A stretch of DNA of 63,419 bases, filler included, from Reclinomonas americana ATCC 50394 (GCA_048213135.1; 17 parts of 17 records of this genome joined end to end with filler, not necessarily neighbours in it); one strand, 5' to 3'. Numbered from the whole stretch's first letter, positions 597-53,386 are shown. Made by a program: numbers and translations. The notes: generated by a model not told the origin, from the letters alone.

Positions 597-3500
597 ACGA
601 CAAGGCGCTCCGCGCGGCATCTCTTGCCTCTGATCGGCGGCACACCACTGCGCTCTCGGGACCGCCTCCGATAGCGTTTGATGTCGCGCCACTGCCTGGC
701 AGTGCCTCGTCGGTGACCGACGCGGCCTCGTCGACGCTCGCAGCTGGAGCAGCAGGTCATCTGCAAGAGGGAACACCGCCAGTGGGCAAGGTGGAAGAAG
801 AAGAAGAAGAAGAGGAACAGGAGGAGGAGGAGGAGGAGGAGGAAGAAGAAGAGGAAGAGGCACCGGCATCGTCGAGTGTCTTGTCGTCGTCGCTGTCGTC
901 GTTGACGACGCACCTGTCGAGTCCACTGGCGCACACGCGGAATGGGAGCGGGAGTCTGCCATCTACGGAGGAGGACGGGTCGTGGGAGCGGGAAAAGGAT
1001 CGGGGTGCACCGGCAGTGGCGGTGGCGGCGGTGCGGCCGCCGCTGAGTCCTTCCATGGGCGCCGCCAAGCCACCACGGCCTCCGTCAGTGCGCAGTCCGT
1101 CGTCGTTGTTGTCGTCGCCGCCGTCGTCGCCGCCGCCGGTGTTGGGTGCGGTGTCGTCACCGGGAAGCGCCGGTGTGCTGTCCCCCATGGCGTCGCCGCC
1201 GGCCCCCTCATACACGCCGTCGCCGCTCAGCAGTGCCGCCGAGGGGCATGTGAGTCCCGGAGCGGTGTCGATCCAGGTGGTGTCCACGGGCACTGCCACA
1301 ATGCCGGTGAGCGGTGGTGCTGGTGCTGGTTCCGCCGTTGGCGGCGGTGGCGAGAGCAGTGGCACGACAGCCACTGTCCCACACGTGAAGATTTCGCTCG
1401 GTGGCTCTGCGCGCGGTACGGTGCAGCGATCGAACTCGATCAGCGCCTTCCCCGCCGGCATGTCGCTGGCGGAGCTGTTCCGCAAGCAAAAGGAGGAAGA
1501 AGATATCAAGAAGAAGATTGCCGACGCACCAAACTCGACGCTGGCGAAGAAGGCCGAGGTGGCCAAGGTCGACGCCATTCCCGGCTCACTATTGCTGTCG
1601 GATCGAGTGCCAGACATGCATGTTCCGCCGGTACGTGAGAGAGAGGGGAAGGGGGGAAAATCCCATGTTCCCTCTTGTTTTTTTTTGCTCATGGTGGTCG
1701 TGTCGTGACAGGTCACCCGCCGTGCCCGCTCTGCATCGCTGACCTCGTTCAATGGCATTCCGACGATTGACCCGAAGGTGGCTGATGGTTGGCGCGCCGA
1801 AGTTGGTCGGTCGTCGCCCGTGGTGCCTGTTGTCGAGAGTGGCACGGCCCCACCTTCGCCACCCATGTTGTCAGCCAGCACCTTCACCTCCGGTTCTTCT
1901 CTCGGTGGCTCACTACCGGCCTCACTAGCCTCACCGCCGACGGCGGAGGGGGCCAGCGGCAGCGCACCACCACGGCCACGCGGACGCACACGAAGTCGCT
2001 CTGTTGGGCCCGTGCTGCAGAACTTGCTGTTCCCACCATCGCAGCCGCCGCCCACCATTGAGCAGCTGGAGGAGATGGAGGGTTCGTCTATTCAGCAGCT
2101 GTCTTCTTTTCCCCGCTCTCTTTTTTCTTACTTGATCGTGTGCCTGCGTGTGTGTGCAGCGGAATCGGAGGAAGACGAGGCCTCCGAGTACACCAATTCG
2201 GAGGAGGCGGAGCGGCATCACGTGAGCATGATGGAGCAGATTACACGCGATTTGGGAGTGGTGGATGCCACAGAGGGCGCCCTCGAGGAAGACGCGTCTG
2301 CAGAGGAGGATTTGCAGACGACCGCCGAGAGCCTGTGGATGGAAAACGACTCGTTCTCCAACCAAATGTTTGGCATCTTGATTCCGCAGTGGATGGCCAG
2401 GGATCGATTTGGTTGCGTATGCCTCATCTTCCTCTCTTCCATGTGTATGCACGTGATTCTTACCGATGCTTGTGTGGGGCGCAGCGGGCGAGGAGGACGA
2501 GACAATCAAGGACGCCGAGGACATTGACCTGTGGACTGAACTCGAAGACAACGAAATTGTGCACGTGGTGTACGACGGACCTCAACTAAAGGCCGCCTCG
2601 ATCAACCGGCTCATCGAAATGTTTACGCCGGCGTCGGCGTGGCCGGACGCCAAGTTTATCAAGATTTTCCTGCAGACCTTCAAGTCGTTCCTCTCACCCG
2701 AGAAGCTGCTGCGGAAGCTGGTGCAAAGATATGTGGTGGTTGTGTTTTGTGTGTCATTGCCTCTCCAGTCGGGGTGCTGACTCCTTTTTTTCTTTCCCGT
2801 TCGAGCACATATGACGTGCCGCAGAATGACGATTTCCTCACACCGACCGGCGACCCGATTTGCATGTCCACGTCGGCCATTCAGCTGCGCGTCTGCAACA
2901 TGATTCGCCAATGGATGGAGGTCGACTTTTCGTCGTTCGACAAGCCGCTGCTGCAGACTCTGGAGGATTTCATCCGCACGAGACTCTCCACCGAGAAGAT
3001 CATGCAGCCGTACTCCCGCTTGCTGCGTGGTATTATTCATCGCAAGGTCTGGTGTTTTTGTTTCACTCCACACCATATTTCGTGTCTTGTTCTCACTTCT
3101 ATTGGGGGGCGGCAGTTGACGGGCGATGACGACAGTGCGGTGCCGGCCGGTGAGCCACCACTGCCGTTGGTACCCACGGAGATTGGAGCGGTGATCTCGT
3201 GGGAGAATGTGTGCGAGGAGGAACTGGCGCGCCAGCTCACGCTCATTGATTACGAGCTGTACAGAGTGATTTATGTGCGTCGAGGGTACAGGGGAAGGGT
3301 AGAAGGGGAAGGGGAAGAGAGAGTAAGGAGAAAGCGAATAGAGGAAGGTGGGAGGGAACGGGAAGAGAGAGGAAGGAGAAAGTGAATAGAGGAAGGTGGG
3401 AGGGAACGGGAAAGGGCATAGGTGAGAGAGAAAGAGGAGGGGGATTGAGAGAGGAAAAGGAGAGCGAGAAGAGGGAGGCCGTCAGCTCACTGGTAAATTC

Positions 3501-5928
3501 CTCACCCTCGGAGGGAGAGGGAGAGAGAGAGAGAGACAGGGTAAGGAGAACGGTGGAGTGGAGTGCAGTGGAATGGAATGGATTGAGACACAGAGAACAT
3601 GGGAGAGGACAGGGGCAAGGAGAGACGGAAGGGCGAGGAGGTGAAGGAGTAAGAGTGTGAAAGAGCAACGCAATTGTCTGGGAATTGGCTCGCGCCCTTG
3701 GGGAGAGAGAGCGATAGAGGCAGGGTGAGGAGAACGGTGGAGTGGAGTGCAGTGGAATGGAATGGATTGAGACGCAGAGAACATGGGAGAGGAGAGGGGC
3801 AAGGAGAGACGCAAGGGCGGTAAAGGAGTAAGAGAGTGTGGAAGAGAAACACAATTGTCTCGGAATGGCTAGCGCCCTTGGGGAGAGAGAGAGAGACTGA
3901 GAAGGAGATAGAGAGACTGAGAGAGACTGAAAGAAAGAAAGAGAGAGAGAGAGAGAGGAAGGGAAACGGGAAGCAAGAGAGGGTGAGAGACAACGAGAGA
4001 GATGTGAGAAAGAGACTATTTCAGTCGTGGCTCACTCGCTGGGAGGAAGGAGAGGGAAAGGGGAAGACAGAACTATGGAGAGGGATGAGAGAGTGTGTGA
4101 GTGGAGGGGGAAGAGAGAGAGAGAGAGAGACTGCATTAAGAGACTGAAGGGGAAGGAGAGAACAGGAATTGAGGATAACTAGGAGAGCGTGCATGAGGGA
4201 GTGAATGGAGGGGGAGTAAGAAATTGTCGGAGAGGGGAACTGGCACTGGGAGGAAGAGAGGAAGAATTGAGGGATTGTGTGAGTGTGTGAGTGGAGGGGG
4301 AAGGGAGAAAGACCACATTAAGAGATAGAAGGGGAAGGAGAGAAAAAGAATGGAGGGTAACTAGGAGAGCGTGCTGAGGGAGTGATAGCATTGAGGGGAA
4401 GTAAGAAATCGTCGGAGAGAGGAACTGTCACTGGGAGGGAGAGAGGAAGAAGTGAGGGACTGCGTGAGTATGTGAGGAGGAGGCCACTAGTGGGGTTAAT
4501 TGCTCTCACTCTGGGAGTGTGGGAGGAGTGAGAAAAGAGAGCGTGCGAGAGAGAAATTGTTTGAGATTGTGGCTCACACTCTCCCTCTTCTTTTATGCAG
4601 CCGTCCGAATATCTCGGTCAGGCGTGGAGCAAGCCAAAACTGCGACACAAGTGCCCGAACTTGATGAGTTGCGTCTCGAGTGTATTTCACACGCACACTG
4701 TCGTCTTTATGTGCTGACGCCTGTGTATCTCTGCGCCAGACATGATTCAACGCTTCAACAAGATTGGGTGCGTACCACCTCCCGCTCCCCCTACCTCTCT
4801 GTGTCGCTTCCCCCGCTCACTCCTCCGCACAGTCACTGGGTCGCCTCGCAAATCCTGCTGCCAACTTCGGTGTCAAGGAGAACGCACATGATTTGCAGAT
4901 TTATCCGGCTGGCGGTGGAGCTGAGGAAAATCAACAACTTCTCGTCGGTGGTCGCCGTGCTCTCCGGTCTGGACATGGATGGTGAGTCGCTGTGGTGGAT
5001 ATATCGATGCGCACACGGAGATTCTCACCACCCCGCCACAGGTGTCTTCCGTCTCAAGTGCTCGTTTGAGAACGTACCGAAGGAGCTGTTGGACGAGAAG
5101 GACAAGATGCGCGCGGAGATGGCGTCGGAGCGCAAGTACAGCAAGTATCGTGCCGCTCTTCGTGACTGCAAGCCGCCGGTCATTCCGTTCATGTTGCGTG
5201 TGTGATGATCTTGTTCCCCCTACATGTTTTGACTGTTGTTTTTTTCTGTTGCAGGGCGCCGTTCCAGAACGATTTGGTCGGAGTCGAGGATAACAACTGG
5301 AATACGATGTTGGTGGAGGGTGTGCGCATGATTAACTGGGAGAGGCGTCGGTTTACGTCGGAGGTGCGATAAGAGGGAAAGGAGGGGGATAAGAGGGGAA
5401 GGGAGAAGGGGGAAGAGGGAAGCAGTGAATTAGTTTGCAGTTTCTGAGGTTTCTGCACCTTAGAGTATCAGAGTTTGTACGTGTGTAAATGTGCAGAGGA
5501 ACGAAGAGGATGAGAGTGATTGTGTCTCTATTCTCTCCCTGTGAGCGCATTACGCTTGGTGCAAGACGGAGAGTGTGTGCTATCGTGAATCGTTTGGTTT
5601 CCTTACTTCATCACCTCTATGTCAGTTATTTGGACGTGCAAGCATTGTATATGATTCTCACCACCACTCTCTCCCCGCACCAGGTCATCCAGTACATGCT
5701 CTTTGGTCAGCAACATCCGTACAATTTCCGCGTCGTGCCTCAACTCAAGCAACAATTGGTCAAGATGGAGGGCACGATGACGGAGGTTTGCGCTCTCTTT
5801 TCGTGTGTGTGAATTATATTTGCGTGTCACCTCACTCTCGTACTCGCCTCTCCGACCAGAACGAGTCGTACAAGCTAAGTATGGTGCGCGAACCTCGCGG
5901 TGTAACAAAAGCCGAGCTGGAGCCATGA
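597..5928 (+). CDS. Ras guanine-nucleotide exchange factor (REM + CDC25 domains, long low-complexity N-terminus); multi-exon, 5'-incomplete
   Basis: The spliced product contains REM (LKAASINRLIEMFT...FIKIFLQTFKSFLSPEKLLRKLVQRYDVP...RVCNMIRQWME). It also contains CDC25 motifs (EEELARQLTLIDYELY, MIQRFNKIGHWVASQIL, INNFSSVVAVLSGL, PVIPFMAPFQNDL, MINWERRR, YKLSMVREPR). An acceptor lies at 596 after a pyrimidine-rich intron, and the stop is TGA at 5926-5928. Confidence 0.93.
3275..4600 (+). repeat. 1.3-kb purine-rich low-complexity intron of the RasGEF gene with internal duplications
   Basis: GTGCGT...ATGCAG boundaries restore VIY|PSEYLG. The sequence is GA-rich, with duplicated blocks such as GGAGAACGGTGGAGTGGAGTGCAGTGGAATGGAATGGATTGAGAC at ~3545 and ~3730. 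Confidence 0.8.
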
Positions 5929-6295
5929 GGTGGTGCCTGGAGAAAAACACGACCCTCTCGACAGTGATTACGATGCACAGGAGCAATGTAAAACTACAAT
6001 GTGTCTTGTTGTTGCAGGGGAAAGGGGGAAGGTAGGATGGAGGTGGAGGGGAAGGCAACTGGCGTGGTGGAGGGGAAGGAGACTGAGGGGAAGGAGTGTG
6101 GTTGAGAAAATAGAGGCTGGTGAGGTGGTGGGGATGGAGACGGAGGTGCACCACTTGTCAAGGGCACGTCACGTGCTCGCACCAGTGGCTGACTTATGAA
6201 AGCGTGTCTGTTTCACGACGGTCTCTGTGGAGTCTCGGTTGCAGCGCTGCGGTGACAGACTTTTGACTGCTATCTGGTCATTGCCATACGATAGC

Positions 6296-6704
6296 GCGAT
6301 TCGTTGTGACTGTCTCCGTCGTGTGGGATACACATGCAGTCCGTCGTCATGCAAAGACGACAATTTCAACTGTAAACGCGTTGTCTGCTTGCTTTCTGTC
6401 GCTGTCGGCTGCAGGTCAGTCAACGCGCACACTTTCTGAGTCACTTTCCACCGTGTGAGAACTCTAGCGCCGAGGGAAACCACAACCAGCTTGTGTAATA
6501 TCAAGCGATTCGTTGTGGCTGCTCTTCGTTGTTTGGCATACACATGCAGTCCACAGCATGCAAATATTAATGAATGGTCCCGTCATACAAAGACGACAGA
6601 TTCAACTGGAAATGCGTTCGCTGCTTGCTTCCTGTCGGTGACGGCTGCAGCCTACAAACGTGCTCATCTTCTGCATCATTCTCCATCGTGTGAGAACTCT
6701 AGCG
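6296..6704. repeat. Diverged tandem direct repeat (2 x ~175-200 bp), intergenic
   Basis: GCGATTCGTTGTG...ACACATGCAGTCC...CAAAGACGACA...TGTGAGAACTCTAGCGC occurs at 6296-6470 and again at 6506-6704. Confidence 0.8.
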
Positions 6705-6995
6705 CACACGAAACTACAAACATCTTGTGTAATCACATCTTATGTACACCAAAAAACGACCGCGACTCTTCCGTATCTCCGCGTGCGGATGGCGCGCACG
6801 CTGTTCAGCAGCAGCACACATGCGCCCACTCGCACCGTCACCATGTTCCCCAGCGTTCACCGCAACACCGCAGCAAAAACCGATGGCGAAGGCGGGAACT
6901 GCCACCACTACGATTTCTATCCGCAATCACCACAACCGCACCTCACATCATCATTGCCTTCTGTGTCGTCGCTGTCTCCTCCACCTGGCTTTTCC

Positions 6996-7227: not shown

Positions 7228-7327
7228 NNNNNNNNNNNNNNNNNNNNNNNNNNNNNNNNNNNNNNNNNNNNTTAATTAATTAANNNNNNNNNNNNNNNNN
7301 NNNNNNNNNNNNNNNNNNNNNNNNNNN
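7228..7327. other. Artificial contig linker N44-TTAATTAATTAA-N44 (16 copies in window)
   Basis: An identical 100-nt spacer with stops in all six frames starts at about 7228, 8775, 11929, 14368, 19722, 23676, 25181, 26978, 32205, 38062, 40940, 43083, 53452, 54936, 57960 and 60885. Confidence 0.99.
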
Positions 7328-7650: not shown

Positions 7651-8007
7651 ATGTCGTATCACTATTACGGCCCCGAGAATGCGCTCAAGCGTGCAGGCGG
7701 TGAGTGGAGAAACAGAGAGAGAGCGAGAGCGAGACAAAAGTAGGGCCATGTTGTCTGCACATGGTGTTCATGTCATGCGCACACACCCTCTCTCTGCTCT
7801 GCTCTCTCTCACACGCGTTTGCCCCCCATTGCAGAGCTCATTCGTGTGGGACACCGCGGAGAGGCACTTCAAGCACTTCACGATGTGCTGGCGCTCAATC
7901 GCCGAAAGTTCCTCTGGCAAAAGGCCTATGAGGACCTCATGATGTTGTACATTGAGCTGTGCGTGGAGCTGCGTCGTGGTCGCCTGGCCAAGGATGGTCT
8001 CATTCAG
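7651..8007 (+). CDS. EIF3A: Translation initiation factor 3 subunit A, exons 1-2 (3'-incomplete)
   Basis: Exons 7651-7699 + 7835-8007 give [35 protein letters not shown]...[31 protein letters not shown], the conserved eIF3a/TIF32 N-terminus. Confidence 0.95.
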
Positions 8008-10047: not shown

Positions 10048-10881
10048 TCAGGCAGAGATGCCGCACGACGTCCACGCGATGCGTCCAGTGGCTGGTCCGA
10101 ACACGCCCATCCACCTGAACACACGCACAATCACTCTCATCAGACACTCTTTGTCTACGTGCACAGCACACTGCAAGTACACCCACCAGTTGAACGTGGC
10201 CTGGTCAAGCGTGTCCGAGCGAGCCTCCGATCCGAAGCACTGTTCACCGTCATGAGGGATCCGGCAGAGAAACGCAATGCGAACAATCGAACACCACAAA
10301 CGCAACGTTGTGAGTGTGCTCGTGCGCCATCAGTGCTGCGATGCATGCACGGCGGTTCTTGCGTGTGTTGGTGGCATCGCCGCCAGCTGCGCTCGAAGCC
10401 GCAGACTGTATATCGATCACCAACGATGAGTGAGACTCTGCACAACACCGCGAGCTGCATGCAACCACACTTCCGCTCACCTGCACAGAGTCGAGCCAGC
10501 CCTCGTCGATGTAGCAGGTGCTGAATCCCGGGTACGACAGGCCAGCGACGCCAGGCGACAGCGTGGTGCACACGGTATCACCAGAACTGCAAGAAGCGCA
10601 ACACAGTTGAGCACAAACAAAAAATGCGCAGCAGCTGCATTCTTGTTGCGTCCGTCACGCAACGTGGAGAACTTGTCGTGCAGGCACGAGTGAACGTCGA
10701 GGCCAGTGGCACGCTCGACTGTGGACTCGTAGTCGCTCCATCGATCGGCGATGTTGAAGTAGATGGCGGAGATGTCGGTGTCGAACGGCGCCTCGCAGCT
10801 GGTGATGGTGTGCGTCGCCGAAGCGAGTTGCACAATGGCGCAGAGGGCGAGAGCAACGAGAAGGAGGTTGCGGTGGATCAT
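10048..10881 (-). CDS. Secreted 180-aa HExxH zincin-like protein, copy 1 (5 exons)
   Basis: Exons 10881-10664, 10586-10481, 10405-10307, 10239-10187 and 10114-10048 total 543 nt in frame. Signal peptide MIHRNLLLVALALCAIVQLASA; motif ALMAHEHTHNCFGSE. Confidence 0.75.
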
Positions 10882-12230
10882 GTTGAGAGGGGTGTGGTGT
10901 GTTTTGTTGTGGGACTGAGAGTTGTTGTTGCCTTGGCTCACAGGAGAGAGAGAGAAGAGGGGGTTGAATACTGCGGCTCATCGCTCCAATTATTATCATG
11001 AAATGATCAACCGCGCGAGATGGCAGGAACAGCGGTTGCGCGCAAGCTGCGGTTGACCAATGCATGCTGCGCCGTCTTGTCGTAGTGGGCGGGATCGCAG
11101 GGCACACCCCACATCACTCTTGAGTGAGGCAACAAAAGGTGTTGCAGGAGGGAGAAGCCAAAATGTCAACCAGTTCGGGTGTTTTCGATATTCCGATCGT
11201 TGCGAACGCAAGGTGTGCATGATGCTCCGTCGCTTCACCGACAGCACTCGCCGCCGGAATATGTGTCAGAGTGGATGGAGTGTGGGAGAGCGAAGCAGCC
11301 TGGCTGTGAGAGTGAGTTGTCTGGGTGGTTTCAGTCGTGTGTCCGGATGTGTATTCTTGCACTTCAAAATCGTCGGAAATCTGCATGCACGCAGCGACGC
11401 GACAAGGAGACGGCTCAGTCATGCAACAGGCAGTTACTCTCGGAATTGGCAAGGTGGGAGCACGATCGCTGCACTGCAGGGAGCGCTGCGCGCGCACGCA
11501 TGCAGCTCGCACGAAAAGCTGCGCGCGCACATCTGCGCAGCGATTATCATTGTTAGCGAAACGCCAGCGTGTTGAGAGCTTGCTGTGAGTCCAGCACATC
11601 ATACTTGAGAAGCAATGTGCATCATCCTCTGAGTGGAGCACAGACAGCGTTTGTGCATAAGTGAGAGTGATCATGATCTGCTGTTTTGTTCGCAATCAGC
11701 AGCTGCTAACCACTCCTGACCAGCACACGCAACAGCGATCAGATGAGTGGCAGCCAGTGATCAACAACAGGCCACGCGTACTGCACATGTGCGATCACCA
11801 ACTGTTGAGATCTGACAATGAAATGCCTTCCGAGACACAAACAAACAACATGCGATGCACTGATGATATCGATCGCTGCGATATCCCTGGATCAGTTCGT
11901 CACCGATTCAGTGCCATCCGTGTATGTCNNNNNNNNNNNNNNNNNNNNNNNNNNNNNNNNNNNNNNNNNNNNTTAATTAATTAANNNNNNNNNNNNNNNN
12001 NNNNNNNNNNNNNNNNNNNNNNNNNNNNGTGTGACATATGACCGCCTAGGCGACCACTGATGGTGCGTGTTGGTGGACGTGGACACAAGGTTGCATGCGT
12101 TGTCATCAGTTCATTCGTGATCATAATATCGGAATCATTACATCAATACCGGCAGCGAATGACAGAGAACGCATGGCACCGTCATAAAGAATCACTGCTA
12201 AAAGAAGAGAGAAGTGCCCGCTGACGCTAT

Positions 12231-13075
12231 TCAGGCAGAGATGCCGCACGACGTCCACGCGATGCGTCCAGTGGCTGGTCCGAACACGCCCATCCACCTG
12301 AACACACGCACAATCACTCTCATCAGACACACACACACGTCCATGTGCGCAGCACCGTGAACACATACACACGCACCAGTTGAACGTGGCCTGGTCAAGC
12401 GTATCCGAGCGAGCCTCCGATCCGAAGCACTGTTCACCGTCATGAGGGATCCGGCAGAGAAACGCAATGCGAACAATCGAACACCACAAACGCAACGTTG
12501 TGAGTGTGCTCGTGCGCCATCAGTGCTGCGATGCATGCACGGCGATTCTTGCGTGTGTTGGTGGCATCGCCGCCAGCTGCGCTCGAAGCCGCAGACTGCA
12601 TACCGATCACCAACGATGAGTGAGACTCTGCACCACACCGCACGCGAGCTGCATGCATGCGCAACCACACTTCCGCTCACCTGCACAGAGTCGAGCCAGC
12701 CCTCGTCGATGTAGCAGGTGCTGAATCCCGGGTACGACAGGCCAGCGACGCCAGGCGACAGCGTGGTGCACACGGTATCACCAGAACTGCAAGCAGCGCA
12801 ACACAGTTGAGAACAAACAAAAAATGCGCAGCTGCATTCTTGCATCCGTCACGCAACGTGGAGAACTTGTCGTGCAGACACGAGTGAACGTCGAGGCCAG
12901 TGGCACGCTCGACTGTGGACTCGTAGTCGCTCCACCGATCGGCGATGTTGAAGTAGATGGCTGAGATGTCGGTGTCGAACGGCGCCTCGCAGCTGGTGAT
13001 GGTGTGCGTCGCCGAAGCGAGTTGCACAATGGCGCAGAGGGCGAGAGCAACGAGAATGAGGTTGCGGTGGATCAT
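12231..13075 (-). CDS. Secreted HExxH zincin-like protein, copy 2
   Basis: Near-identical exons and the same intron positions as copy 1; introns and flanks are more diverged. Confidence 0.75.
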
Positions 13076-38161: not shown

Positions 38162-40939
38162 ACCAATCGTACCGATCATCACTCCATCGCTGTCGCCTCA
38201 TCGACGACCGATATCACCGTCGGCGCACGATCGTGCCACGCTCACCGATGGCGATGCACGACGGGCACTCCGCGAGCAGCCGCCGTCCAACTCGCTCCCG
38301 CTGTCCTCCTCCTCGTTGTCAGCTGCAATGTTGTTGTCGTCGTCGTCGTCGTCGATGCCAGCGGGCGCTGCACCTGTGGCGGCGGTGGCGACGGCGGGGA
38401 CGGCAAAGTCGACGACGCGAAGCTTGTCGCCAATGTTGGGAACCGCATCGACGGCCTTTCCCGAGTACTCTGCCAAGTTTCAGCAGCAGCAGCAGCGATT
38501 GCATGCAGCGGAGGAGCGTGCTCGACAACGACGGCAAGTGCAGGAGGAGCTGCAGACATTGCGCAACCAGAATGCGCAGCTGCGACAGGAGAACAGCACG
38601 CTGCGCACACAGGTGGCCGTGGCCACCGAGTCGGTCACCGATTCCGAGTCGCGCATGCATGCGCTGGCCGGCGAGACGGAACGTGCGCAGAATGCCACCG
38701 AGGCCGCGGAGAGTGCCTACAAGAAGCAGACGGCGACGCTTATCGCCGCCGAAGATCGAGCGCGGGTACTGGAGGATACGGTCACACAGTTGGAGGAGGA
38801 GCAGATGGTCAGCGGTCTGGAGTTGGTCGATTTGCGAGAGCGCGTGCAACGGATGGACGAGGAGCGCGTGGAGAGCGAAGCGCTGCTGAAGCGACTCTCG
38901 GCGCTTGCGAACGATGCGCAGAAGCAAGCCGAGAGTCTGGAACAGGAGAAGAGTGCACTGCGCGAGCGAGTGGACGCACTGCAAGATGGCCTCGGCGAGT
39001 GCCAGCTGGAGCGAGGTACGTCAATCGCACAAGGGAGGAGGTGGTGACCTTGAGCGGTTGCACTGATGCTTTCTCTTTATCGTTGCAGGGGCGTTGCAAG
39101 CGCAGCTCGATGCGTGTCGTGCAGAGTACAAGCAGGCGCAAATGGAGTTGGACGATTTGCGCCGGGCTCACTCGGCGACGCTCGATGACAAGCGACAGGC
39201 AGAAGAACTGTTGGAGCGTGAGCGCTTGCGCGCCACCGATCTGTCCACTCGCCTGAGCGAGGTGTCGGTGGAGAAGGCACGACTCGGTGCAGACATGCGT
39301 GCCCTCCAGTCGGAACTCCAGCTGCTCCGCCAGCTAAAGCAAGAAACAGAGTCGTCAGCCGACCGACAGCAGCGCACTTTTGATGATCTTGCCGAGCAGC
39401 TGCGTGCTGCGTCGGCTGATCGCAGTTGCGTGCACACTACCTGTGAATGCGTTGCTTTGCGAAGCAGCACACATCTCACCTCTTTTTGGCTCGCAGTTCG
39501 TGCCGAGGGACAACTCTCTGCACTGCGACTGGCGCACGATCGCGCGATGGAGACGAAGCACTCTAGTGAGCGGGCGCTGGAGGAGGAGCAGAAACGCACG
39601 TCGTCGTTGCAGAAAGAAGTGGCTGAGCTATTGACGAGAAACGTGCAACTGGAGGCGGAGCTGGCGGACTCGACGGCCTTGGCCACACGTCGTCAGAATG
39701 CCGTGGGCGAACACTTGGCAGAGCTCGACAGACTGCGCGAGCAGTTGGCCGCTGTGCGCGCCGATCGACAGCGGCTCATTGACGAGCTGTTCACGTCGCA
39801 GAACTCGCTGGAGGAAGAGAGTAGACGGCGATCGCAGTGTGAAGAGCAGGTGCGCAATCTGCGTGCCGACGCTGAGAAGCAAGCGCGCGATGTGCACGAG
39901 GCACGACAGCTGGCCGAACAGCGGGCACAGCGGGCCAGTGCATCGGCGGCTGAATTGTCTGAGGCGCGCAATCGACTGGCTGAGATGACGGCTCAGCTCG
40001 AGTCGGTCAGAAGCGAGTTGGCAGTGGAGTGCGAGGCGCATCAGCGCGACGTGGCGCTGGCCAGCACCCGGGCGCAGGGTTTGGAGGCTGACTGCCAGCG
40101 ACTTCGAAAGCAGGTGCAGGAGCTGCTGGAAGACAAGGCACGAATCGCCAGCGCGCTGCACGAGAGGTCCATGGAGTTGGAGCAGAACCGAGGCAGACTG
40201 AGCTCACTACAAGTGGAGAGTGCGACGCTGGGCGACCACGTCGGGCGACTGAACGATGAGGTATTGTCGGTGGACGCAGTGCATTTTTCGTTTGTTTTTT
40301 TGGCTTGCATTCTGACACCCCGCTGGCACAGCTCGCCAAGGAACGTGGTGACCGGTTACGCGAGGTTGGCTCAAGTGAATCGCGGCTGCAGTCGCTGCAA
40401 GTGGAGTTGGAGCGCGCCAAAGCTGAGTTGCGCCAGGTATGGTCGCTGAACGAGCAGACCTCGGCACAGCTGGACAAGGTCACACGAGAGGCGGAGAGCA
40501 GCCGAGCGCAGACGGCCGAGTTGACGCGCTCGTTGCAGAGCATCACTGGCGAGAACCGTTGAGTTTTTTTGGTTTTGTCTCCGATTTTGCAATGGTCTCG
40601 TTCTCACCACACAAGCATGTCCGCAGGCGAGCTGCTGGAGCGACTGGAGACGCAGCACTCTGCTGCAACCGGTGACAGCAGCCGACTGACAGAGGAGCAG
40701 CGCACGCTGACAGCGCAGGTTGAATCGCTGCGCATCAAAGTCTCGCGGAGTGTGGACGAGGAGGCCCGACATGCTGCCGAGCTGGAGAGATTACGAAGCG
40801 CTGCCGCTCGACTTGAGAATCAGCTGGCAGGCCTCAAGGCCACCAACGGACGCCTGGAACGCCAAGTGGAAGAAGAGAAGGCAGCACGGCAAGCCGAGAG
40901 CTTGCAGGCGGAGGAGCGCATTCGGGCACTGCGCACGCT
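38162..40939 (+). CDS. Long coiled-coil protein (Ser-rich region followed by an extended heptad-rich rod), partial
   Basis: Continuous E/Q/R/L/A heptad-rich frames joined by four GT-AG introns (from ~39016, 39425, 40261 and 40558). Confidence 0.8.
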
Positions 40940-41039: not shown

Positions 41040-43082
41040 GCCTGCTCATTGCGCATGTACACCAAGAACGAGGCCGCTGGTCGGTTGCGTCCAGTCGACT
41101 CCTGTCGCATGAACCGCTCGGTGGCCTGCATGCAAAACGTGAGGAACGAGAGACGGGATCGCTCACCGCAATCTCTGTTGCACTCAACTCGCTGGCCATC
41201 GGCGCCATCCAGAGTGATCCATGTGTTGTCGCGTGTGTCGAGCGCAAACGTACACTGGCCGACCACCAAGCGCAACGAGTACTCGTCGCCGAGGATGGTC
41301 GAAAAGACACTGTCCAACTGTGCCATGAGCTCCGCCTTTTCCGCGTCGCACTCTGCACACGCGTACAAGTGAGAACAACGCCACTCTCTGCTTGAGGCAA
41401 CCAACCGCAGGCCACCACGTAACTTGCAATTTGCTGCTGCACATTATCGAGTTCGCAGTCCACCAGCTGGGCAGTCACTTGCAGGTCAGCGTTGCCTTGG
41501 AAGCCACCGCTCTCGCAATACTGCTTCACTCCCTCCAAGAAGACTTGACGCTGGAGCAGCTTGCTTGATGGCGGCACACCAGCATGAATTCTCTGCATCT
41601 CGAAGTGAGGCAAAAAATTTCAATATATAGGGCCGCTGCTTCAGCTTTTTTCACACACCTCACATGCCATCGGCAAACGCAACACCCTTGTCTTGCGATC
41701 CTCGCACGCTTGTATCCTACTGTAGATGGAGGCGGCCTCCAGGAAGCATGCCTCCACGTCGCCCACAGCGTCGGCCGTGTAGCGGCGCATGTGAAGCAGC
41801 TGCTCAAACGCAAACTCGCGGATGGCTTCACCCTTGCCACACTGCCGATCGATCAGCAGTCAGTCAGTCAGGCAACTCGAGACACATGCATCCCAACAGT
41901 GCGACTCACATGCAACGAGACCACCAGCATCGGCGGCAGTCTCGTGATGGCGCGCGAGCCGATCGGCATCGGCGACGGTGAGCCCGTGTGATCCATGGTC
42001 AACGGCAACAACTGGCGATCGAGCGCAGCCTGCACGCAAGCACAGTTCTTCACGTCGACGCCCAACTGTGCAAGAGTCTGCGCCAGGCAATCCAGCAACG
42101 GTCAGAGTCAGCGCGTGACAACGGCCAGCACGGCCTGCTCGCTCACTCACCGTGGACTCGCCGGTGTCGAGCCGGGTGGACCGAATGTTGACAGTACTGA
42201 ATACACAAATATCTGTGAGAAACTGAACCATGCAGACATGGACACAAGCACACGGCGCGTACTCTTCCACTGCCGCCGCCACCGGCACGCTGCTGCATTG
42301 TTGCAGAGTGTGCAACAGAACCTCGTACAAACGCTCCCACACAAGCGCCACGTCTGTCAGGCAAGTGCAGAACGTGAGAGACCACATGGAGAACTTCAAG
42401 ACGAGTCACAAAGAGACAACACACCAGACTGTCGCTCTGCTGCGATCCGGCTCACGGTGATGAAGCTGTCCAACAGCGCCTCGCTTGTAAGCTCCACGAC
42501 CTCACCGGTGCACATCAGATTGGCAAACAGATTCTGCACGAGAAGCACAACTGCAACACCCCCAGCTCAGCACAGCGACAGTGTTCACCGCACACCACAA
42601 CAACGCACACTCAATGCGCTGGAAATCGCGAAGCACAGCGTTGCTGTCGGCACGCTCGTCGACAGCCTTCACGGAATCTGCAGATGCCACAAAGACGCAG
42701 TGAGTAATGCGCGCAGCAGTCAGTGCATGGACACACCGCAGTCGCCGCACCACGAATGTGCAGTGGGGTCGATGTCACCGGACGTGCCGGCACAAAAGCA
42801 AAAATGGCACGTCGCATCGGCAGAATCCAGAACGCCATCAACAAGCACGCATTCAGTGCCGCGTGTCCTCTCTTGGTCGGTTGCGACACGAGATGATGCA
42901 GAGTGGAGGGATAGTATTGCTGGGTGGCGTCGGAGTCCAGGGAGAATTTTTCGAGCTCGAGTACTGTCCAACAGATGCAACTAGTAAGTTAGGCAGTTGA
43001 TACCAGAGCGCAAAGTACTCGGTTTTTCTCACACCATCCACACAGCGCATCAACTCCTCGGATCCACGGGCCTCCGCAATGA
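41040..43082 (-). CDS. Ubiquitin-specific protease (C19) fold, predicted catalytically inactive, USP25/Ubp2-like
   Basis: Cys-box-like RGHAALNACLLMAFWILPMRRAIF, ITRLPPMLVVSL, a helical insert, EYSLRLVV...W and AASFLVYMR occur in USP order. Confidence 0.6.
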
Positions 43083-43182
43083 NNNNNNNNNNNNNNNNNN
43101 NNNNNNNNNNNNNNNNNNNNNNNNNNTTAATTAATTAANNNNNNNNNNNNNNNNNNNNNNNNNNNNNNNNNNNNNNNNNNNN

Positions 43183-46215: not shown

Positions 46216-49200
46216 TCACGAGTCGAGCATGCCGACGTAGAAGGGTTCTTTGGCGCTGTTGGCCAGTCGGCGGATGTGGGTGCCGGCGAGCTCTTGGTTG
46301 AGGAAGCGGAGCATGTGGGAGTACTCGCGGTCGGTGGTCGGCGGCACCGAGCGCACGTACCACTCGAGCGCCTGGATCATGCGCACGCCTTCTTCCGTGC
46401 GATCACTCTGCGATTTGACATCCACGCGCGAGTTGTACAGCAACTGGTACAGAATGCCTGCGTGCGCAGCGAGAGAGAGAGAGAATGAGTTGTCTGTAGC
46501 GATACGTTTTTACCGTCGCGTGGCACACGTACCGAGATTCTTCATCAGCGGCGGCACGTTTTCCCTTTCGCCGTACCGTGCAATCGGCAGCATCTCTAGT
46601 ACTCGTTGAGCGGCATCTTCCAGGAAGTTCATGTACCGAACGGGATCGGCTGAGGAGCAAGCACGTCAGCACTCGTCTCCCAATCCATGTTAGTTGCGTG
46701 GCTCTCGCACTCACCAGCATACATCTCCTGCGCCCGAGTGATCCAGTAGGCCACGCGATTGACCGTGGCCGTGATGTACGTGGTTACCATCACAAACTCC
46801 CACATATCGCGCCCGTACAGACGCAAGTCCGGCAGCCAGCGATACTCGCTGATGGGTCTCACCGCCGGCCACGTCTGGTCCAGCCACTCGAACACTGGAA
46901 TGCGCGACACGTGGCCCTTCGCCACCGCCTGCTTCGACAGGCCAAAGTCGACCACATCGTAGTGCATCTCCACCTCCAGCTTGTCTGCCGGTCGCACGGT
47001 GGTGGCAAAGAAGATCTTGTGGCCCTTCTTGATGTTGGCGTCGACAAATCCAATCAGCGACGTTCGGCTCCACTGCGGATCATTGTTGTAGCGCTTGCCC
47101 GAGGACTCCAGCGGCCACAGGACATCGGGCATGTGCGACTTGCGCAGCGCCGTGTACCACTTGTACGACATGAGCTCCTGGTCCACTACATGCACATCGG
47201 TGCGATACTGTTCCGAGTATTGTACGTAGCGCACACTGTTGCTGACAATGTCGCCAGTTGTCATGAGGATGGCGTTGGGTGGCAGTGGTCGCAACACCTC
47301 CTCCGCCAGTCGACTGAGGATATCGTTCTCGCTCTGGTCCGCCAACGGGTACGTCTGCACCAGCAACAAAACGGCGGCCAGCACAATGATGAAGCGCCAT
47401 CCCCACGTCCACTGTCGACTCCACGGTCCGAGCATCACCAATGACGAGGGGGCGTTGACGAGCGCATGCATCCCCACCGCCACAAGCGCGCACAGCAGCA
47501 CGTTTGGCTGCATCCAGAAGCGAGCACTGACTCCGAAATCTGTCGCGCACGAGCAAAAACAGCCAAAGCGTCAGCGATCACGCACAGTTCGCAGAAGTAG
47601 GGAGAGAGAAACACGCAACAGATCTCCTTGCTCAAGTCGAGATTGGCGCGACTGTGGAAGAACACGAGGTAGCCGATGAGCGAGCTGAAAAATGGCGTCG
47701 CCACGCGCGTCAGGAACGAGCGGTACGCCGCCGTTGGCGTGACAAAGGAGGCGGTCGATGCGTCGGCTGCCGAGGTCGCCGCCGCCGCCTTGTTCGAGTT
47801 GACAGCGATTGGTGGATCATGCTTCTTCGACGAGTCGCGGAGCCACGGTAGTAGTCGGCGACTCAACAGCTGTGTGCGCCGGATGAGAATGCAAGAAACA
47901 AGTGGACTGCTGCATACATGATCACGTATGTACTCCACCTTTGGCCACACGTACGGTACCGACAACAGCAGCAGTGGCAGGCCCAGGTGGTACGTGTACA
48001 GACTGACGTGCGTCGCGTAGTGCATGAGTCCGCCCAGCAGGTCAGGTTCGTCGTCACTGGCTGCAAGCCGGAACGTGCCGTACTCGGAGCGCAGCAAGTG
48101 TCGCAGGAAACCCTCGATCGTTCGCTGGTCGCCTGTGTTGTATGTGCGATGCGTCAGAAGGCAAGGAGATCGTCACGCACAGCACGAGTCTCCGTACCCC
48201 ACGTGTGAGCCGGCCCCATCATGGTGGCAATCGGCATTTGCGCGTACGGCAGCAAGCCGAGGAAGAAGAGGAAGAGCCAGTCGAGAACTCGCAGAAGAGT
48301 AAAGTGTGAACGCAGGCTCCACAACACCCACAGAATGATCGGTATCTCGAAGAGGATGATGGTGTGCTGGTTGCACAGGAAGAAGCCGCAGGCGAATGCA
48401 CCCCATCGAGAGAGGGACAGCGCACGGCTTTGATCGCCCTCCTCCAACGCCCGTGCAAACGAGGCACACAGCAGCAGCAACAAGGCCGTGAAGAGATTGT
48501 TGAGCGAGAACACCTCCGAGGTCACCGCATGAAGCCACGTCAACTGGCTACACAAGGGGGAACGCATAGACACTCTCGTCAGCAAGCGAAGGGGCGCACG
48601 AAGAGAAGTGGGGGAAGGAAAACCGCGCTCAACTTGAACGTGTAGAATCCCGCGGCCGCAGCCGACACCATCACATCGTGCTGCGTCAGCTGCAAGCACA
48701 ACACAAACAGGCACACACTGGCTGCAGTGGCCACAAGCGCATTGACAAAGTTGGCGCGCTACAACCCCGTCGTCGTCGTCAGCATCGTAGGGAAATCACC
48801 CGACAAGACAGAGACAACAGGCATACCCACGCCGCAGTTGGCCCAAACGGAATCCAATCCAGCGCCGCCTTGGTGATCATGCAGTACAGCGGGTACCCCG
48901 GAGGATGCGCCACACCACCCGAATGCGCTGCCACAAACGCAAGCATATCAATGCATTGCATGCATTCTCTCATCACTCTCTCTCTCTCTCTCTCTCTCTC
49001 TCCGTCACTCACCAGCCGCAATCAACTCTCCGCTATCGCCTCCCGCCAAGCCCAGCTGCAACGTGCACATGTACACCACGCCCACCACCATCATCCACAT
49101 CACCGCCAGCAGCAGCGTGCGACGCGACACGCAGGCGCCTGCCGCCGACAAGGCCGCGCCCACTGGCATGCATGCCTCGCGATCGACAACACCACCAGCC

Positions 49201-49298
49201 GCCGATGCACGAGACGCCGTCGGAGCTGCAACTCCGGCAGAGACAGTAGCAGAGGGTGGCGGCGATGCCGAGACTGCTGTGCGCTGCCCTCGTCGCAT
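46216..49298 (-). CDS. TMEM260: TMEM260/DUF2723-family GT-C protein O-mannosyltransferase-like, paralogue 1
   Basis: GGDSGELIAA..GGVAHPPGYPLY, EVFSLNNLF, CNQHTIIL, LGLLPY, TWGDQRT..GFLRHLLRSEYGTFRL, RFWMQPN, LPPNAILMTTGD..NSVRYVQ and VDQELMSYKWY. Confidence 0.92.
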
Positions 49299-49398
49299 TT
49301 ATGGTGAGTGGGACAGACGGAGTTGTCCTCCTTCGCGTTTTTCCTTTCTCTCTCTCGCTTCGTCCGTCGTGGCAGTCTGGCATATAGAGTGCGTCGTG

Positions 49399-50530
49399 AT
49401 GCGGTACTTGGTGTGCAGTGATGGTGCGTGTGCTTGCTGCGTGTCTGTGTGTGTGTGGAACCGCGCTAATGTTTCCTTTCCGTCGAATATAGGTTCAAAG
49501 TTCGCCAAGCGCGGTGAGTGTGTCTCTTTCGATCTCACACACACACGCATTGTGAGCATGTGTTTGTGTGCGTCTTGTGAGAGGAGAGCGTGAGAGAGGA
49601 AAGGGGGTGGAAAAAAGATGCGTCGCTCACAAAAAGATTCCGAACACCGCAGCGGTGGAGAAGGTTGCCACATTGGTCGCCCCCGGTGCGTCTCTCCTTC
49701 TGTGCGTGTGTGTGCTCTAGGAGTGTGTATCTGACTTGTGTTTATACAGGTGACGAGGTGGTGCTGGTCGCGGTGATTGATCAGGTGTGTTTGTGTGCTC
49801 ATTGCTTGGCGGATCGTTGCTCACATGATTGTTTGCAGGCCATCATGCCACCAGCGGTGCGTGTGAATGAGAATGAGAAAAGAAAGAAAGAGAGACTTGT
49901 ATGTGCTTAACAGCATGGTTTGCAGGTCGGACCTGCGGCTGTCATGCTGGTCGATGCGATCGCACCGCCACCAACGTCGGAGGAGCTCACCGCCGCGGCT
50001 GGTTGGTTGTCGGAGGAGGCGCTGCTGTTGGACGGCTTGCTTCCGCACGACGAGGCTGGGGCGCCGACGGTGTCGATTGTGGAGCGCGTGCAGGCAGGAG
50101 ACGTGCGCGAAATCATTCCGCACCTGGCTGCTGTTGCGTTGTCGTCGGTGGTTGCTGGTCTCGCCCTGCGTTCACAACTCACTGACACGTGGCTGGCTGC
50201 GCAGGAGCTCAAGAGCGATGTCATTGTGGTGGGATCGCGCGGTCACGGCAAGTTCCGTGTCGATCCGCCCTCGTCTCTTGTTCTCGAGTGTTTCATGCTT
50301 ATCGTTTGTGGTGTGCACGCAGGGTCAAGCGACTGCTTCTCGGTAGTGTGGCCGACTACCTCTTGCACCACTCAGTTGCGCAGCACTTGTGTAGTGCTCT
50401 TTTCTCCCTTTTCGCCTCTCACGTGTCTCCACACCAGCCGTGCTCGGTGCTGGTGGTGCGACCCGGCGATCCGAGTGTGGCCGCCGTCGAGCGGCAGCTG
50501 GCCAGCTCGAGCGGAATGGGACCGGTATGA
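49399..50530 (+). CDS. Universal stress protein (UspA family), 176 aa, 9 exons
   Basis: Exons of 25, 21, 33, 35, 18, 207, 47, 52 and 93 nt total 531 nt: MRYLVCSDGSKFAKRAV...GDVREII...DVIVVGSRGHGKVKRLLLGSVADYLLHHSPCSVLVVRP. Confidence 0.92.
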
Positions 50531-50615
50531 GGTGCCAGCGTAGTCACAGTGTAGATGGTTGTCGAGCAGAGAGTGAAACACAGCTGCTGCGGTCGTGATA
50601 TTATTATTTTCATTT

Positions 50616-53386
50616 TCATTCGATGAGGGGCAGTCCGCGGTGCTGCCGCTCTAATACGGTTTCCACGGCGGCCAGCACATCTCCGGCACCATACTCCTTC
50701 TCCCACCTTTCGAGTCGTCGCACGTGTGCCGCCGGCTTCTTCTTCGCCGTGTGGGAGGCGACAAACTGTTGCACATCGGCGCCTGTCAGCGTCTCCGTTC
50801 CCGGCTGACCGAGCAGCGCAAGGTACGCGCGGTAGGCCAACAGCATGTGCGCGCCGTCTTCGATGTGCTCCTCGTCGCTGCGTTCCTCCTCAAGTGCCCA
50901 CAGATTCTGGTACGCCAATGCGAGCTGCATGGCATGTGATGAGTGAGACGGGAAGGAAGTGGCGAGGCAGGTTGGGCGGCACGCACATTCTTGTAAATGG
51001 TGCTGCGGTGGTAGGCCGTGCCGTGGCGGAAAATGTGCGCCAATCCGCGCAGGCGCGTCAGGACCATGTTGCCCACCAGCACCTTGTCGCGCGGCGACAC
51101 CAATTGCGGCAGCAGTGTCAGCAGCTTGCTGGCAAAGTTGTAGTCCTTGGTGGCGTACGAGTCGGCCATCTCATACTCAAACGTCTCCGGTCCGTAGCGC
51201 TGAATGTTGGGCCACGCACTGGACACTTGCAGGCACGGCAACAGGCGCTGAAGGAGGAGCGGGTATGTCAGTTTTTAAAACTCGCCGACCTTGTCAGCAA
51301 TACACACCTCGTTGGCCAGCGGCAGCCACTCGCCAAGCTCCAGGTCCTTCTCGCCGGCCGTCAGCACGCGTTCGGCCACGCCGTAGGCGCCAAAGGGTGT
51401 GGCCAGGTGAAGTCCTTTGGAGGTGAAATCCCTCTCTTGCAGGTTCAGTTGGGGCAACAGGAAAACGCCGTCGGTGAACAAATGCGGGTTGTCGTCGAGG
51501 AACGAGCGCACGGTGCGCCCTTCGTCGTTGCGAATCACATTGACGCCCGGCACAGCGGCCGGCATGGTCAAGTCGGGCATGTACGGTGCGAGTGACTTGC
51601 CGTACCATTCGTAGGTGAGCAGCGACTGATCAATGAGGCGCACATCCGGTCGCACGCCCTCGGAGAATTGCACATCTGTGTCCTTGCGCGGTGAGATCAA
51701 TGATGCAAGGCATGATGTGCGACAGCCACACGCAACATCGCACGGCATTGGTCCACTGATCGCCAAACAAGAACACGGTGGCTTTTGGCGGCAACGACTC
51801 CAGCGCCTGTCGCGACACGTCGCGCAAGAACGTGTTGCGCGACTCGTTGCAGTGCTGCGAGTTGTGCGCCACCAGCGCGACAAGGGCCACCACACACGCC
51901 ACACGCACGGCAATGCGCACCGGCGACGGCAGAGCACACCGTCGACTCCTTCGCTGCTGCGTTTGCGATCCCACATCGTGAGCCGCACAGTGTTTGCCAC
52001 CGCTCGGCGGTGGCTGAGGAGCGAGAGCGGATGCAGTGAAGTGTCCAGTCAGTTCATGCAGTCCGACCGCAGCCAGCGCACACACGACCATGTTTGGCTG
52101 CATGGAGAAACGATCGGCAATCGCTGGTATACCAGAAACAGGAACGATCAGCGTCGCTCTCTCTCTCTCTCTTTCGCTCAAACTGCAAGTGCATACGCAC
52201 CACGAAAGAGCGGCTCGTGGACGCGCAAGTTGGCGAGAGAATGGAACGCCAGCAGGTAGAATCCGAGCGACGCCAACAGCGGAGTCGCCGACGGACAGCG
52301 GGAGCGCAGCAGACGGAAGCCACCGAAGATGGCCAGCAGCAGCGAAACGCCAAACGTCGACACCGTCACATCGCGCACGTAGCGGAACACGCCTGTGCAT
52401 GCAACGCAGGGGTGTAAGGAAGATCACAGATGATGGTAGGGAGAGAGAGAGAGAGAGGCGTACCACCAATGAGATCGGCGCCACCACCAATCTGCTCACT
52501 GCCGAGCGCAAATGTGCCGTACTCGCGTCGCAGCAGGTGTGTCAGGAAGCCGCTGACGGTCGTGAAATCACCCCACGTGTGCATCGGCTGGCTGTGCGCA
52601 GTCCACGGCAGGTACGCGTACGGCAGCAGCCCAAGCACGAACAAGGCTGCGAGTTGCACCAACGGCAGCTGCCGCAGCTGCCGTCGCAGCGTCCACAGCA
52701 CCCACACGGCAATCGGAATCACGAAAAACACCAGCGTGTGCTGATTGGCGAGCCCGAGACCACACAGCAAGGCGCCGAGTCGCGCCCGATTCACCGTCGG
52801 CTGCCGAGCAAACGACACTCCCACCAGAAAGATCGCCGCGACAAACACATTATTCAGCGGGAACACCTCCAACGACGTGGCCTGCCACCACGTGAGCCGA
52901 TCAAACGCAAAGAAGCCGGCACCGACCACCGACGCCACCGCATCGCCGTCGGTGAGTCGCCAACACAACAGCAGCAGCAGCGTGGCAGCCGCAGCAGCCA
53001 GCAGCGCCGACATGACATTGAGCAGATAGGCCGCATTACCAGCGCCACCGCCAAGGCACCACAACCACACACGACCCGTGATCACCAAGAGCGGATAGCC
53101 GGGCGGATGCGCGACACCGCCTGCATCAATCGTCACCGCCAATTCACCACTGTCGCCTACACACGCACAATGAATGATTAGCGATGCTTCATTCACCTCT
53201 CTGCTCTTCTCTCTCCTCACCTGGGCCGACACTCGGATACACATGCGTCACATACACCACTGCGCAGACAACTCCAAATGTCACTGCAATCACCCACTGA
53301 GTGAGCGCGCTGCTCTTCTCCCCGCTCTCCGCAGGCGCCTGCGAGGAGGAGGCCGCAGCAGCAGCCACGGCGGCAGGTCGGCGCAT
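50616..53386 (-). CDS. TMEM260: TMEM260/DUF2723-family protein, paralogue 2
   Basis: PGGDSGELAV...GGVAHPPGYPL, EVFPLNNVF, ANQHTLV, LGLLPYAYLP, TWGDFTT..GFLTHLLRREYGTFAL, RFSMQPN, LPPKATVFLFGDQWTNAVRYVQ and IDQSLLTYEWY. Confidence 0.92.

Follow-up and report, generated by a model that had tools for sequence, protein, structure and literature searches.

We analysed a 63,419-nucleotide (nt) stretch of DNA from Reclinomonas americana ATCC 50394 (GCA_048213135.1), referred to below as the window, and found that its predicted introns begin with two kinds of 5' splice site, or donor. The main donor class of the window is GTGCGT/GTGAGT/GTACGT. In the second class, which we call the T class, the third intron base is T and the familiar letters follow one position later, as in GTTGCGT. 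The T class is a large minority, 13-18% of the parsed introns, within these 63 kb of about 17 linked contigs. The reading that we prefer, with a probability of about 0.6, is that these are real introns which the U1 small nuclear RNA (snRNA) reads in a register shifted by one base (+1) relative to the cut.

Intron signals and predicted junctions of the donor class

The first-pass annotation listed 21 heptamers as donors in which an ordinary hexamer carries an extra U at +3, and each of them was recovered at its coordinate and on its strand. Two (-12857 and -12496) copy -10663 and -10306 on a second contig that is 96% identical, so 19 sites are independent; our firm independent set is these 19 minus +17433 and +50133 (n=17). 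All 21 sites have GT at the 5' end. YAG stands at the 3' end of all 17 firm sites, and a branch-like CT[CGT]A[CT] lies 10-45 nt before the AG in 15 of them, with a weaker form in one more. We call a site frame-forced if the intron length is not divisible by 3 or if retention meets a stop, which applies to 14 of the 17 firm sites. The tally of the 21 is 14 independent frame-forced sites, four that stay open if retained, one in a non-coding context, and the two copies. At the four open sites (+39425, +50133, +50375 and -41188) the length is divisible by 3 and there is no in-frame stop, so frame alone demands no splicing. Support at +39425 (72 nt), +50375 (63 nt) and -41188 (63 nt) comes from signals and coding score.

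Canonical GT donors in the same phase are absent near the sites, with one exception: a GTATGC at +33 of the +2412 intron, which would leave 40 nt. Branch sites, ends and lengths show no difference between the two donor classes, and the median lengths are 69 nt for the T class and 68.5 nt for canonical introns (filtered parse, below). With respect to U12-type donors, ATCC follows GT in none of the 21 sites, and the branch motifs are CTNAY. Introner-like repeats were considered and rejected, as by eye the introns have no common sequence beyond these signals. The predicted introns behave as ordinary short introns, and the observation made in the first-pass annotation is confirmed.

GTTGCGT is also over-represented as a word, with 25 copies on both strands against 11.4-13.4 expected under Markov models of order 1-3. 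The excess of about 12-13 matches the 13 GTTGCGT sites in the earlier list. The other 12 copies are mostly antisense, within introns or outside parsed genes; two (-41683 and -44089) lie in sense exons. As a donor, -41683 was rejected, since worked by hand its downstream exon would hold a stop. GTTGAGT shows no word enrichment under the same models (8 copies versus 7.8-10.8 expected).

Genes were parsed with a Viterbi parser that uses 3-periodic coding statistics self-trained on the window, allows introns of 35-2500 nt, and scores acceptors crudely by a branch-like CTNAY motif plus YAG. A donor-blind run required nothing but GT at the donor and left the first 12 bases of each intron out of the intron composition model. 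It predicted 94 introns; 26 were dropped, and the 68 that measure 38-200 nt and contain no N were kept. Donors of the form GTT[GA][CA]G[TC] start nine of the 68, compared with 0.58 expected from their share among all 8223 GT sites (p 7e-9), and strict canonical donors, GT[GA][CA]G[TC], start 14 (3.9 expected, p 2e-5). Decoy heptamers, with A, C or G inserted in place of T, show no preference in the blind parse (2/68 versus 1.9 expected). The blind shares are lower bounds, because the parser often takes a same-phase GT a few codons off (5202 for 5193; -52203 for -52200).

A second, decoy run gave every GT-N-[AG][ACT]G[TC] heptamer a bonus equal to that of the canonical hexamer. Usage was 18/114 for heptamers with inserted T, 0/37 for A, 4/150 for C and 8/208 for G (T versus the rest, p 4.8e-6). 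Filtering this run for introns of 40-200 nt with a branch motif, YAG and no N kept 84 of 126 introns, here called the filtered parse: 46 broad canonical, 15 of the T class (18%), 13 other, seven with inserted G and three with inserted C. Together with the 13% of the blind parse, this comes close to the share of roughly a fifth that had been estimated from introns traced by hand.

Some further features of the parsed introns were noted. Other parsed donors with T at +3 fall outside the shifted class, at 2082 (+), 5786 (+) and 44237 (-). Of these, an agg/GTTCGT donor (a slash before the intron marks the cut) keeps G and T at +5 and +6 and G at -1, a gag/GTTTGCGC donor looks like a two-U version, and cga/GTTTCGT is a third form. 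Intron length is a multiple of 3 for 35 of the 84 introns of the filtered parse, above the expected third, and the frame is open on retention in 18 of 84; the surplus may reflect tolerated retention or parser bias.

The most precise junctions come from two TMEM260 paralogues, paralogue 1 at 46.2-49.2 kb (-) and paralogue 2 at 50.6-53.4 kb (-). Paralogue 1 contains an 80-nt intron at 47540-47619 (-), donor tct/GTTGCGTG, and an 86-nt intron at 48548-48633 (-), donor caa/GTTGAGCG; paralogue 2 contains a 61-nt intron at 51676-51736 (-), donor gat/GTTGCGTG. All three were chosen by the blind parse. Intron positions differ between the paralogues: the -48633 intron has none corresponding to it in paralogue 2, and the -51736 intron none in paralogue 1. 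Across -47619, -48633 and -51736 the predicted products align without gaps to each other and to 12 homologues. Against a profile hidden Markov model built from 60 full-length TMEM260 homologues, paralogue 1 as predicted scores 497.2 bits, and this falls to 491.8 (+3 nt) or 489.3 (-3 nt) when the -47619 junction is moved, and to 489.7 and 489.8 when -48633 is moved by 3 nt in either direction. Paralogue 2 as predicted scores 448.5 bits, versus 441.5 (+3 nt) and 433.3 (-3 nt) with -51736 moved. The three predicted junctions, 5.4-15.2 bits better than their alternatives at 3 nt to either side, are exact by homology.

Another intron of paralogue 2, at 52124-52200 (-), has the same phase as 47540-47619 (-) and lies two codons (6 nt) away from it, with the donor GTGCGT versus GTTGCGT. 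This offset looks real, because both products are gap-free against homologues. The best database relative of a TMEM260 exon, searched at near and longer lengths, has 48% identity. No transcript-derived protein closer than 48% to the exon was found. A metagenome scan for homologues returned four loci at 41-46% identity from a different lineage, which were not used.

The RasGEF gene (2-6 kb, +) contains three members of the class. A 73-nt intron at 2412-2484 (+), donor ttg/GTTGCGTA, lies upstream of the RasGEF_N motif; it was picked by the donor-blind parse, its length is not divisible by 3, it has a strong branch motif and CAG, and it is the sole class member with G at -1. Inside the RasGEF domain are a 72-nt intron at 4668-4739 (+), donor tga/GTTGCGTC, which is a blind-parse choice with a retention stop after 48 nt, and a 62-nt intron at 5193-5254 (+), donor cat/GTTGCGTG, with a retention stop after 12 nt. 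The latter was chosen by several parses; the strictly blind parse used the same-phase GT 9 nt downstream (5202). Residue 52 of exon 3116-3274 falls at position 17 of the Pfam RasGEF profile, and exon 4834-4980 enters the profile at position 51. With the +4668 intron and its neighbours removed, the gap in the spliced model is 32 residues, equal to 32 profile positions. The exon that precedes the +5193 donor can be aligned over its whole length with RasGRF1 and SOS1, as far as PPCVPY/PPCVPF. No match was found for the RasGEF read-through open reading frame (ORF) among longer proteins, or in the PDB for the exon after +5193. The same gene has a single long intron of about 1.3 kb (3275-4600, +), compared with 60-90-nt introns elsewhere, which is purine-rich and internally repeated, with GGAGTGGAGTGCAGTGGAATGGAATGGATTGAGAC... 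present twice.

The first-pass annotation had held that most of these donors are needed to restore conserved protein motifs. This stands for the exact TMEM260 junctions and is consistent with the RasGEF spacing; the UspA motifs were not recovered when single exons were searched against Pfam and the PDB. Pfam assigned no family to single Usp exons, a PDB search with a Usp piece gave only a chance match, and a Usp exon had no matches in a library of representative proteins. The UspA family label, an assumption from motifs, was not confirmed by these searches.

A duplicated gene provides an internal comparison. Its two copies are 96% identical and lie on different contigs, at 10048-10881 (-) and about 12230-13100 (-). 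Each has four introns and is predicted to encode a small protein that begins like a signal peptide and contains an HEHTH motif. The pair may represent two alleles or a recent duplication. The first copy contains a 77-nt intron at 10587-10663 (-), donor cac/GTTGCGTG, which was chosen in the decoy parse and has a length not divisible by 3, and a 67-nt intron at 10240-10306 (-), donor aac/GTTGCGTT, with an in-frame stop at 54 nt, a length not divisible by 3 and a strong branch. For the latter the decoy parse used the same-phase GT 9 nt downstream instead. The counterparts on the second contig, which are not independent, are at 12787-12857 (-), placed by alignment, and at 12430-12496 (-), identical in sequence. 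Every indel that separates the copies (6 nt; 6 and 4 nt; 4 and 3 nt) is intronic. Three of the four predicted introns contain them, among them one with a GTTGCGT donor, and the exons of the copies show only substitutions. In the -10663 intron the second copy differs by a 6-nt indel plus clustered substitutions. The GTTGCGT donors are the same in both copies.

Two side observations concern this gene. The copies differ in the donor of the last intron, GTGGGT versus GTGCGT. The -10663 donor forms a perfect 7-bp hairpin with the bases that follow (10645-10663; GTTGCGT GACGG ACGCAAC). The second arm (ACGCAAC) is mutated in the other copy and not conserved, so the hairpin is probably due to chance.

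U1 register and alternative explanations

In the mechanism that we propose, the T class would be a second, sharply defined 5' splice site, N/GUUG(C/A)GU(G), of short GT-AG introns with a CTNAY branch and a YAG end. It would correspond to the main donor, G/GUG(C/A)GU(G), with the second G changed to U; the only GU that remains lies one base 5', and the cut would be made one base earlier. A single U1 could pair with both classes through the common block UG(C/A)GU, the flanking G closing the exon in canonical donors and opening the intron in the T class. The U1 helix would then lie at +1 relative to the cut, with U at +2 as the single mismatch and U+3 to U+7 pairing as +2 to +6 do normally. A G at -1 would not be needed in the shifted helix, an A at -1 could add a pair, and the exact cut would be set at GU by later spliceosome steps.

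The composition of the donors points to such a shift. It had been predicted that donors with T at +3 would show G and T at +6 and +7 rather than at +5 and +6, and this test, set beforehand, bore the prediction out in the blind set: 10 of 23 such donors have G6 with T7 and two of 23 have G5 with T6. Among background GTT sites the corresponding counts are 97/1414 and 118/1414. The enrichment of G6 with T7 has an odds ratio of 10.4 (p 1.7e-6), and G5 with T6 is not enriched. Donors of the blind set with another base at +3 have G5 with T6 in 16 of 45 cases and G6 with T7 in five of 45.

The base before the cut changes too. G is found at -1 in 24 of 28 strict canonical donors versus one of 17 in the T class (p 1.1e-7), and the blind set has the same direction (25/45 with +3 not T, 5/23 with +3 T). 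The commonest base at -1 in the class is A (9/17), and G at +8 in the class (9/17) mirrors canonical G at +7 (16/28). Counted from the base before the canonical cut, the usual eight letters are GGTGCGTG versus GTTGCGTG in the class, with one difference, at the second letter. Given the loss of G at -1, the class amounts to the usual GGTGCGTG in which T replaces the second G and the cut is placed one base earlier. The idea of a +1-shifted donor consensus as a major class is supported by the displacement of G and T to +6 and +7 and by the share of 13-18%. The loss of G at -1 refines the original picture, favouring a shift over an inserted U.

A different register would leave the usual U1 paired with G+1 and U+2, loop out one U of +2/+3, and resume pairing at +4. 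According to the accessible text of Tan et al. 2016 (PMC4856993), experiments have validated the bulge at +2/+3 as a register in humans, and the intronic consensus G4-(C/A)5-G6-U7 agrees equally well with this register and with the shift. In a bulged helix, however, G at -1 should help at least as much as in the canonical helix, and its near absence favours the one-base shifted register over a bulged extra U. In nearest-neighbour energies for a model site, which are illustrative, the shifted helix is favoured over the bulged one by 2.1 kcal/mol, with both the standard and an ACGUAC-type U1 5' end. With these assumed U1 5' ends, when G+1 pairs in the energy optimum it does so with C9 at five of six sites (standard) and at eight of 10 (ACGUAC type); at +2412, the lone site with G at -1, the optimum pairs G+1 with C8, as a bulge would have it. 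Neither the near absence of G at -1 nor the energy difference is decisive, and we consider the bulged register rather unlikely. It is less probable still that the class has a second U1 or U1-like snRNA of its own, whose 5' end is complementary to GUUGCGU, in the way that U11 serves U12-type introns. Such an RNA would suit the sharp definition of the class (GTTGCGT is 8/15 of the T class in the filtered parse) and would have parallels in the donor-matched changes of the U1 5' end in Entamoeba (ACAAAC with GUUUGU) and Mastigamoeba (ACGUAC with GUGCGC), as given in the accessible part of a preprint (10.1101/2022.06.08.495308). The class differs from the main consensus 8-mer at only one base, though, so that one U1 suffices, and branch sites, ends and lengths are alike in both classes. 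An Rfam search of the window found no RNA gene and no snRNA, which says little for 63 kb.

That there is no real class at all, the sites being mis-traced introns, GC donors three bases further in (GTT/GCGT), or products of a sequencing artefact that adds T, we regard as very improbable. The GC at +4/+5 of GTTGCGT is in the same phase, so the frame does not discriminate, and four sites are open on retention. However, seven sites with GTTGAG, GTTACG or GTTCCG have neither GC nor GT at +4, which makes such a donor impossible there, and the +3-nt forms are 5.4 and 7.0 bits worse at -47619 and -51736. The parser does not prefer decoy insertions, both copies of the duplicated gene have the same donors, and an added-T artefact would not strip G from -1 and would also break long exons. 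If the cut instead followed the G, the intron would start with UU and end one base past AG, G at -1 would be restored and U1 would stay in its canonical register. This needs a non-G first intron base and a non-consensus end, at which the base after AG is C, A, G or T; we know of no spliceosomal class with a UU start and an end past AG, and find this version scarcely credible.

Several points weigh against the shifted register. The sets compared at -1 were selected, the class being the list of the first-pass annotation and the canonical donors coming from our own parse with a bonus for consensus donors. A at -2 occurs in only five of 28 canonical donors, which leaves the A at -1 of the class (9/17) without a mirror. 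For a standard U1 5' end, G+1 does not pair in the energy optimum at 11 of 17 sites, and the pairing energies are weak (+0.7 to -5.2 kcal/mol). U6 usually meets G at +5, and the class has C or A there, so later spliceosome steps must tolerate the shift too. A model-free check, which asked for a branch motif and YAG 45-120 nt downstream with pyrimidine excess, found these at 15 of 70 class sites versus 695 of 7956 for all GT sites (p 0.001), and is weak because canonical hexamers are not enriched by it (39/372, p 0.26). Of the 21 sites, four are open on retention and one is non-coding. All of the evidence is the sequence of 63 kb in about 17 linked contigs, from which splicing is deduced.

Individual sites and gene content

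The remaining members of the class are spread over several genes. On the plus strand, a 69-nt intron at 32610-32678 (donor cga/GTTGCGTT) is a decoy-parse choice with a retention stop after 33 nt, a CTCTGAC branch and CAG. In a WD40 gene (35-38 kb, +), which the first-pass annotation labels AHI1-like, the blind parse chose an 84-nt intron at 36060-36143 (+), donor caa/GTTGCGTT, with a strong branch and a retention stop after 18 nt. A coiled-coil gene contains a 72-nt blind-parse intron at 39425-39496 (+), donor gca/GTTGCGTG, which has a strong branch and keeps the frame if retained. Another blind-parse choice, 69 nt at 40558-40626 (+), donor acc/GTTGAGTT, has a strong branch and a retention stop after 3 nt.

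Three predicted introns are on the minus strand. The 63-nt intron at 41126-41188 (donor cga/GTTGAGTG) was chosen by the decoy parse and has a strong branch. For this site it had been claimed that the shifted donor keeps the frame and a textbook GTGAGC nearby does not; that GTGAGC is indeed 22 nt downstream and out of phase, but the frame is also kept on read-through. At 41353-41423 is a 71-nt decoy-parse intron (donor caa/GTTACGTG) with a length not divisible by 3 and a strong branch. A thioredoxin-domain gene (18-21 kb, -) contains a 64-nt intron at 20772-20835, donor tct/GTTACGCA, likewise chosen by the decoy parse, not divisible by 3 and with a strong branch; here the blind parse used a same-phase GT 24 nt upstream instead.

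A putative Usp gene on the plus strand has two predicted introns and one uncertain candidate. The 71-nt intron at 50252-50322 (donor caa/GTTCCGTG), not divisible by 3 in length, was picked by the blind parse, and also in the decoy parse without any donor bonus. The 63-nt intron at 50375-50437 (donor tca/GTTGCGCA) is a blind-parse choice with a strong branch that keeps the frame if retained; the spacing of the C-terminal Usp motif would presumably fit. The candidate, 72 nt at 50133-50204 with donor gct/GTTGCGTT, has CTCACTGAC and GCGCAG as signals, is in frame without a stop, and was read as exon by the parser. The second site outside the firm set, 17433-17545 (+), donor aca/GTTGAGTA, is a candidate intron of a 5' untranslated region. 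Its context is non-coding, and its acceptor could be at either 17514 or 17545. A His-rich ORF starts further downstream, with an ATG at about 17555.

The G+C content of the window is 55.5%, and its genes are eukaryotic and rich in short introns. The window has 16 N runs, all one identical linker of 44 N, TTAATTAATTAA and 44 N (for example 7228-7327, 11929-12028 and 43083-43182), and TTAATTAATTAA has stops in all six frames. The identical linkers indicate that the window is about 17 strung contigs of 1.3-10.3 kb each; gene models across a linker are unsafe, and neighbours are possibly non-adjacent. WD40-repeat genes occupy 54-62 kb (-). Near-alike WD40-repeat gene pieces extend over several contigs at 53712-62531 (-), each followed by the same C-terminal segment (...QEMQEEE..SRCLPELVLRCFIVEDAEVV); these may be a multi-copy family or collapsed haplotypes. 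A long intronless ORF at 21951-23253 (+), possibly left by a retroelement, matches zf-RVT weakly (E 7.5e-5 for the ORF, short of the Pfam cut-off). Of the protein-coding pieces of the window, the best conserved is an exon at 7837-8007 (+) that matches the PCI/TPR-like region of eIF3a (E 3e-14).

Significance and comparison with known systems

We give roughly even odds to the broader claim that about one sixth of introns would be spliced via a U1 helix one base off the cut. Binding and cleavage would then be routinely uncoupled, through one U1 in two registers or a second paralogue, and this would be the first organism with a noncanonical register as a major, consensus-defined class. The hand-over from U1 to U6 and the choice of the cut are known mostly from rare human sites and artificial minigenes. 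If the claim is true, there would be dozens to thousands of natural substrates with a one-base-shifted donor, a clean contrast of two classes that differ at one base, and a direct test, at scale, of the uncoupling of U1 register from cleavage site. Gene-finding programs that learn donors from six intronic bases would get a sixth of the introns in such a genome wrong.

U12-type introns have the consensus donor /RTATCCTT and branch TCCTTRAY. Like them, the T class is a second donor class beside a major one; unlike them, it has the branch and 3' end of the major class, and the U12 consensus is absent here.

Close parallels to the T class are found in humans. In the accessible text of Tan et al. 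2016 (PMC4856993), the shifted register and the bulge at +2/+3 are both described as proven in human cells, with U1 tolerating a one-position shift or a one-base bulge and the cut being set later. Register studies by Roca and Krainer 2009 and Roca et al. 2012 are taken here as cited in PMC4856993 and PMC9311317. Human shifted-register sites (Roca and Krainer 2009, via PMC4856993) resemble the T class in that GU is at the cut and U1 pairs displaced by one position. As in the T class, the model oligonucleotide ACA/GUCAAGUAUA (PMC4856993) lacks G at -1 and carries G at +6 followed by U at +7. In humans the shifted register is a rare exception, whereas here it would account for 13-18% of parsed introns with U fixed at +3, the register being read from sequence. 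The bulge at +2/+3 (Roca et al. 2012, via PMC4856993) likewise involves GUU followed by a consensus donor, with either U looping out in the human case; it differs in that G at -1 is lost here, which a bulged helix does not predict. The scale also differs. The accessible part of PMC4856993 gives 68 predicted bulge +2/+3 sites, 54 after curation, of 201,541 human 5' splice sites (about 0.03%), and about 1.5% of sites for all validated noncanonical registers together.

Among other eukaryotes, Entamoeba has the donor GUUUGU (Roy and Bowser preprint, 10.1101/2022.06.08.495308, accessible part), with U at +3 as in the T class; there it is normal for the whole lineage. Unlike the class here, Entamoeba keeps G and U at +5 and +6, uses one motif in nearly all introns, and has a co-evolved U1, according to the same text. 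The T class has G and U at +6 and +7 and exists beside a canonical majority. The main donor class of the window resembles the donors with C at +4 that the preprint (10.1101/2022.06.08.495308) gives for Mastigamoeba (GUGCGC), Thecamonas and Mamiellales (GYGCGY), and its accessible part makes no mention of a shifted class in these groups. A literature search, with subscription journals mostly outside its reach, turned up no lineage reported to use a one-base-shifted donor as a major class. The proposed mechanism would therefore be of a known kind, as in the human registers, while its scale and sharp consensus would be new.

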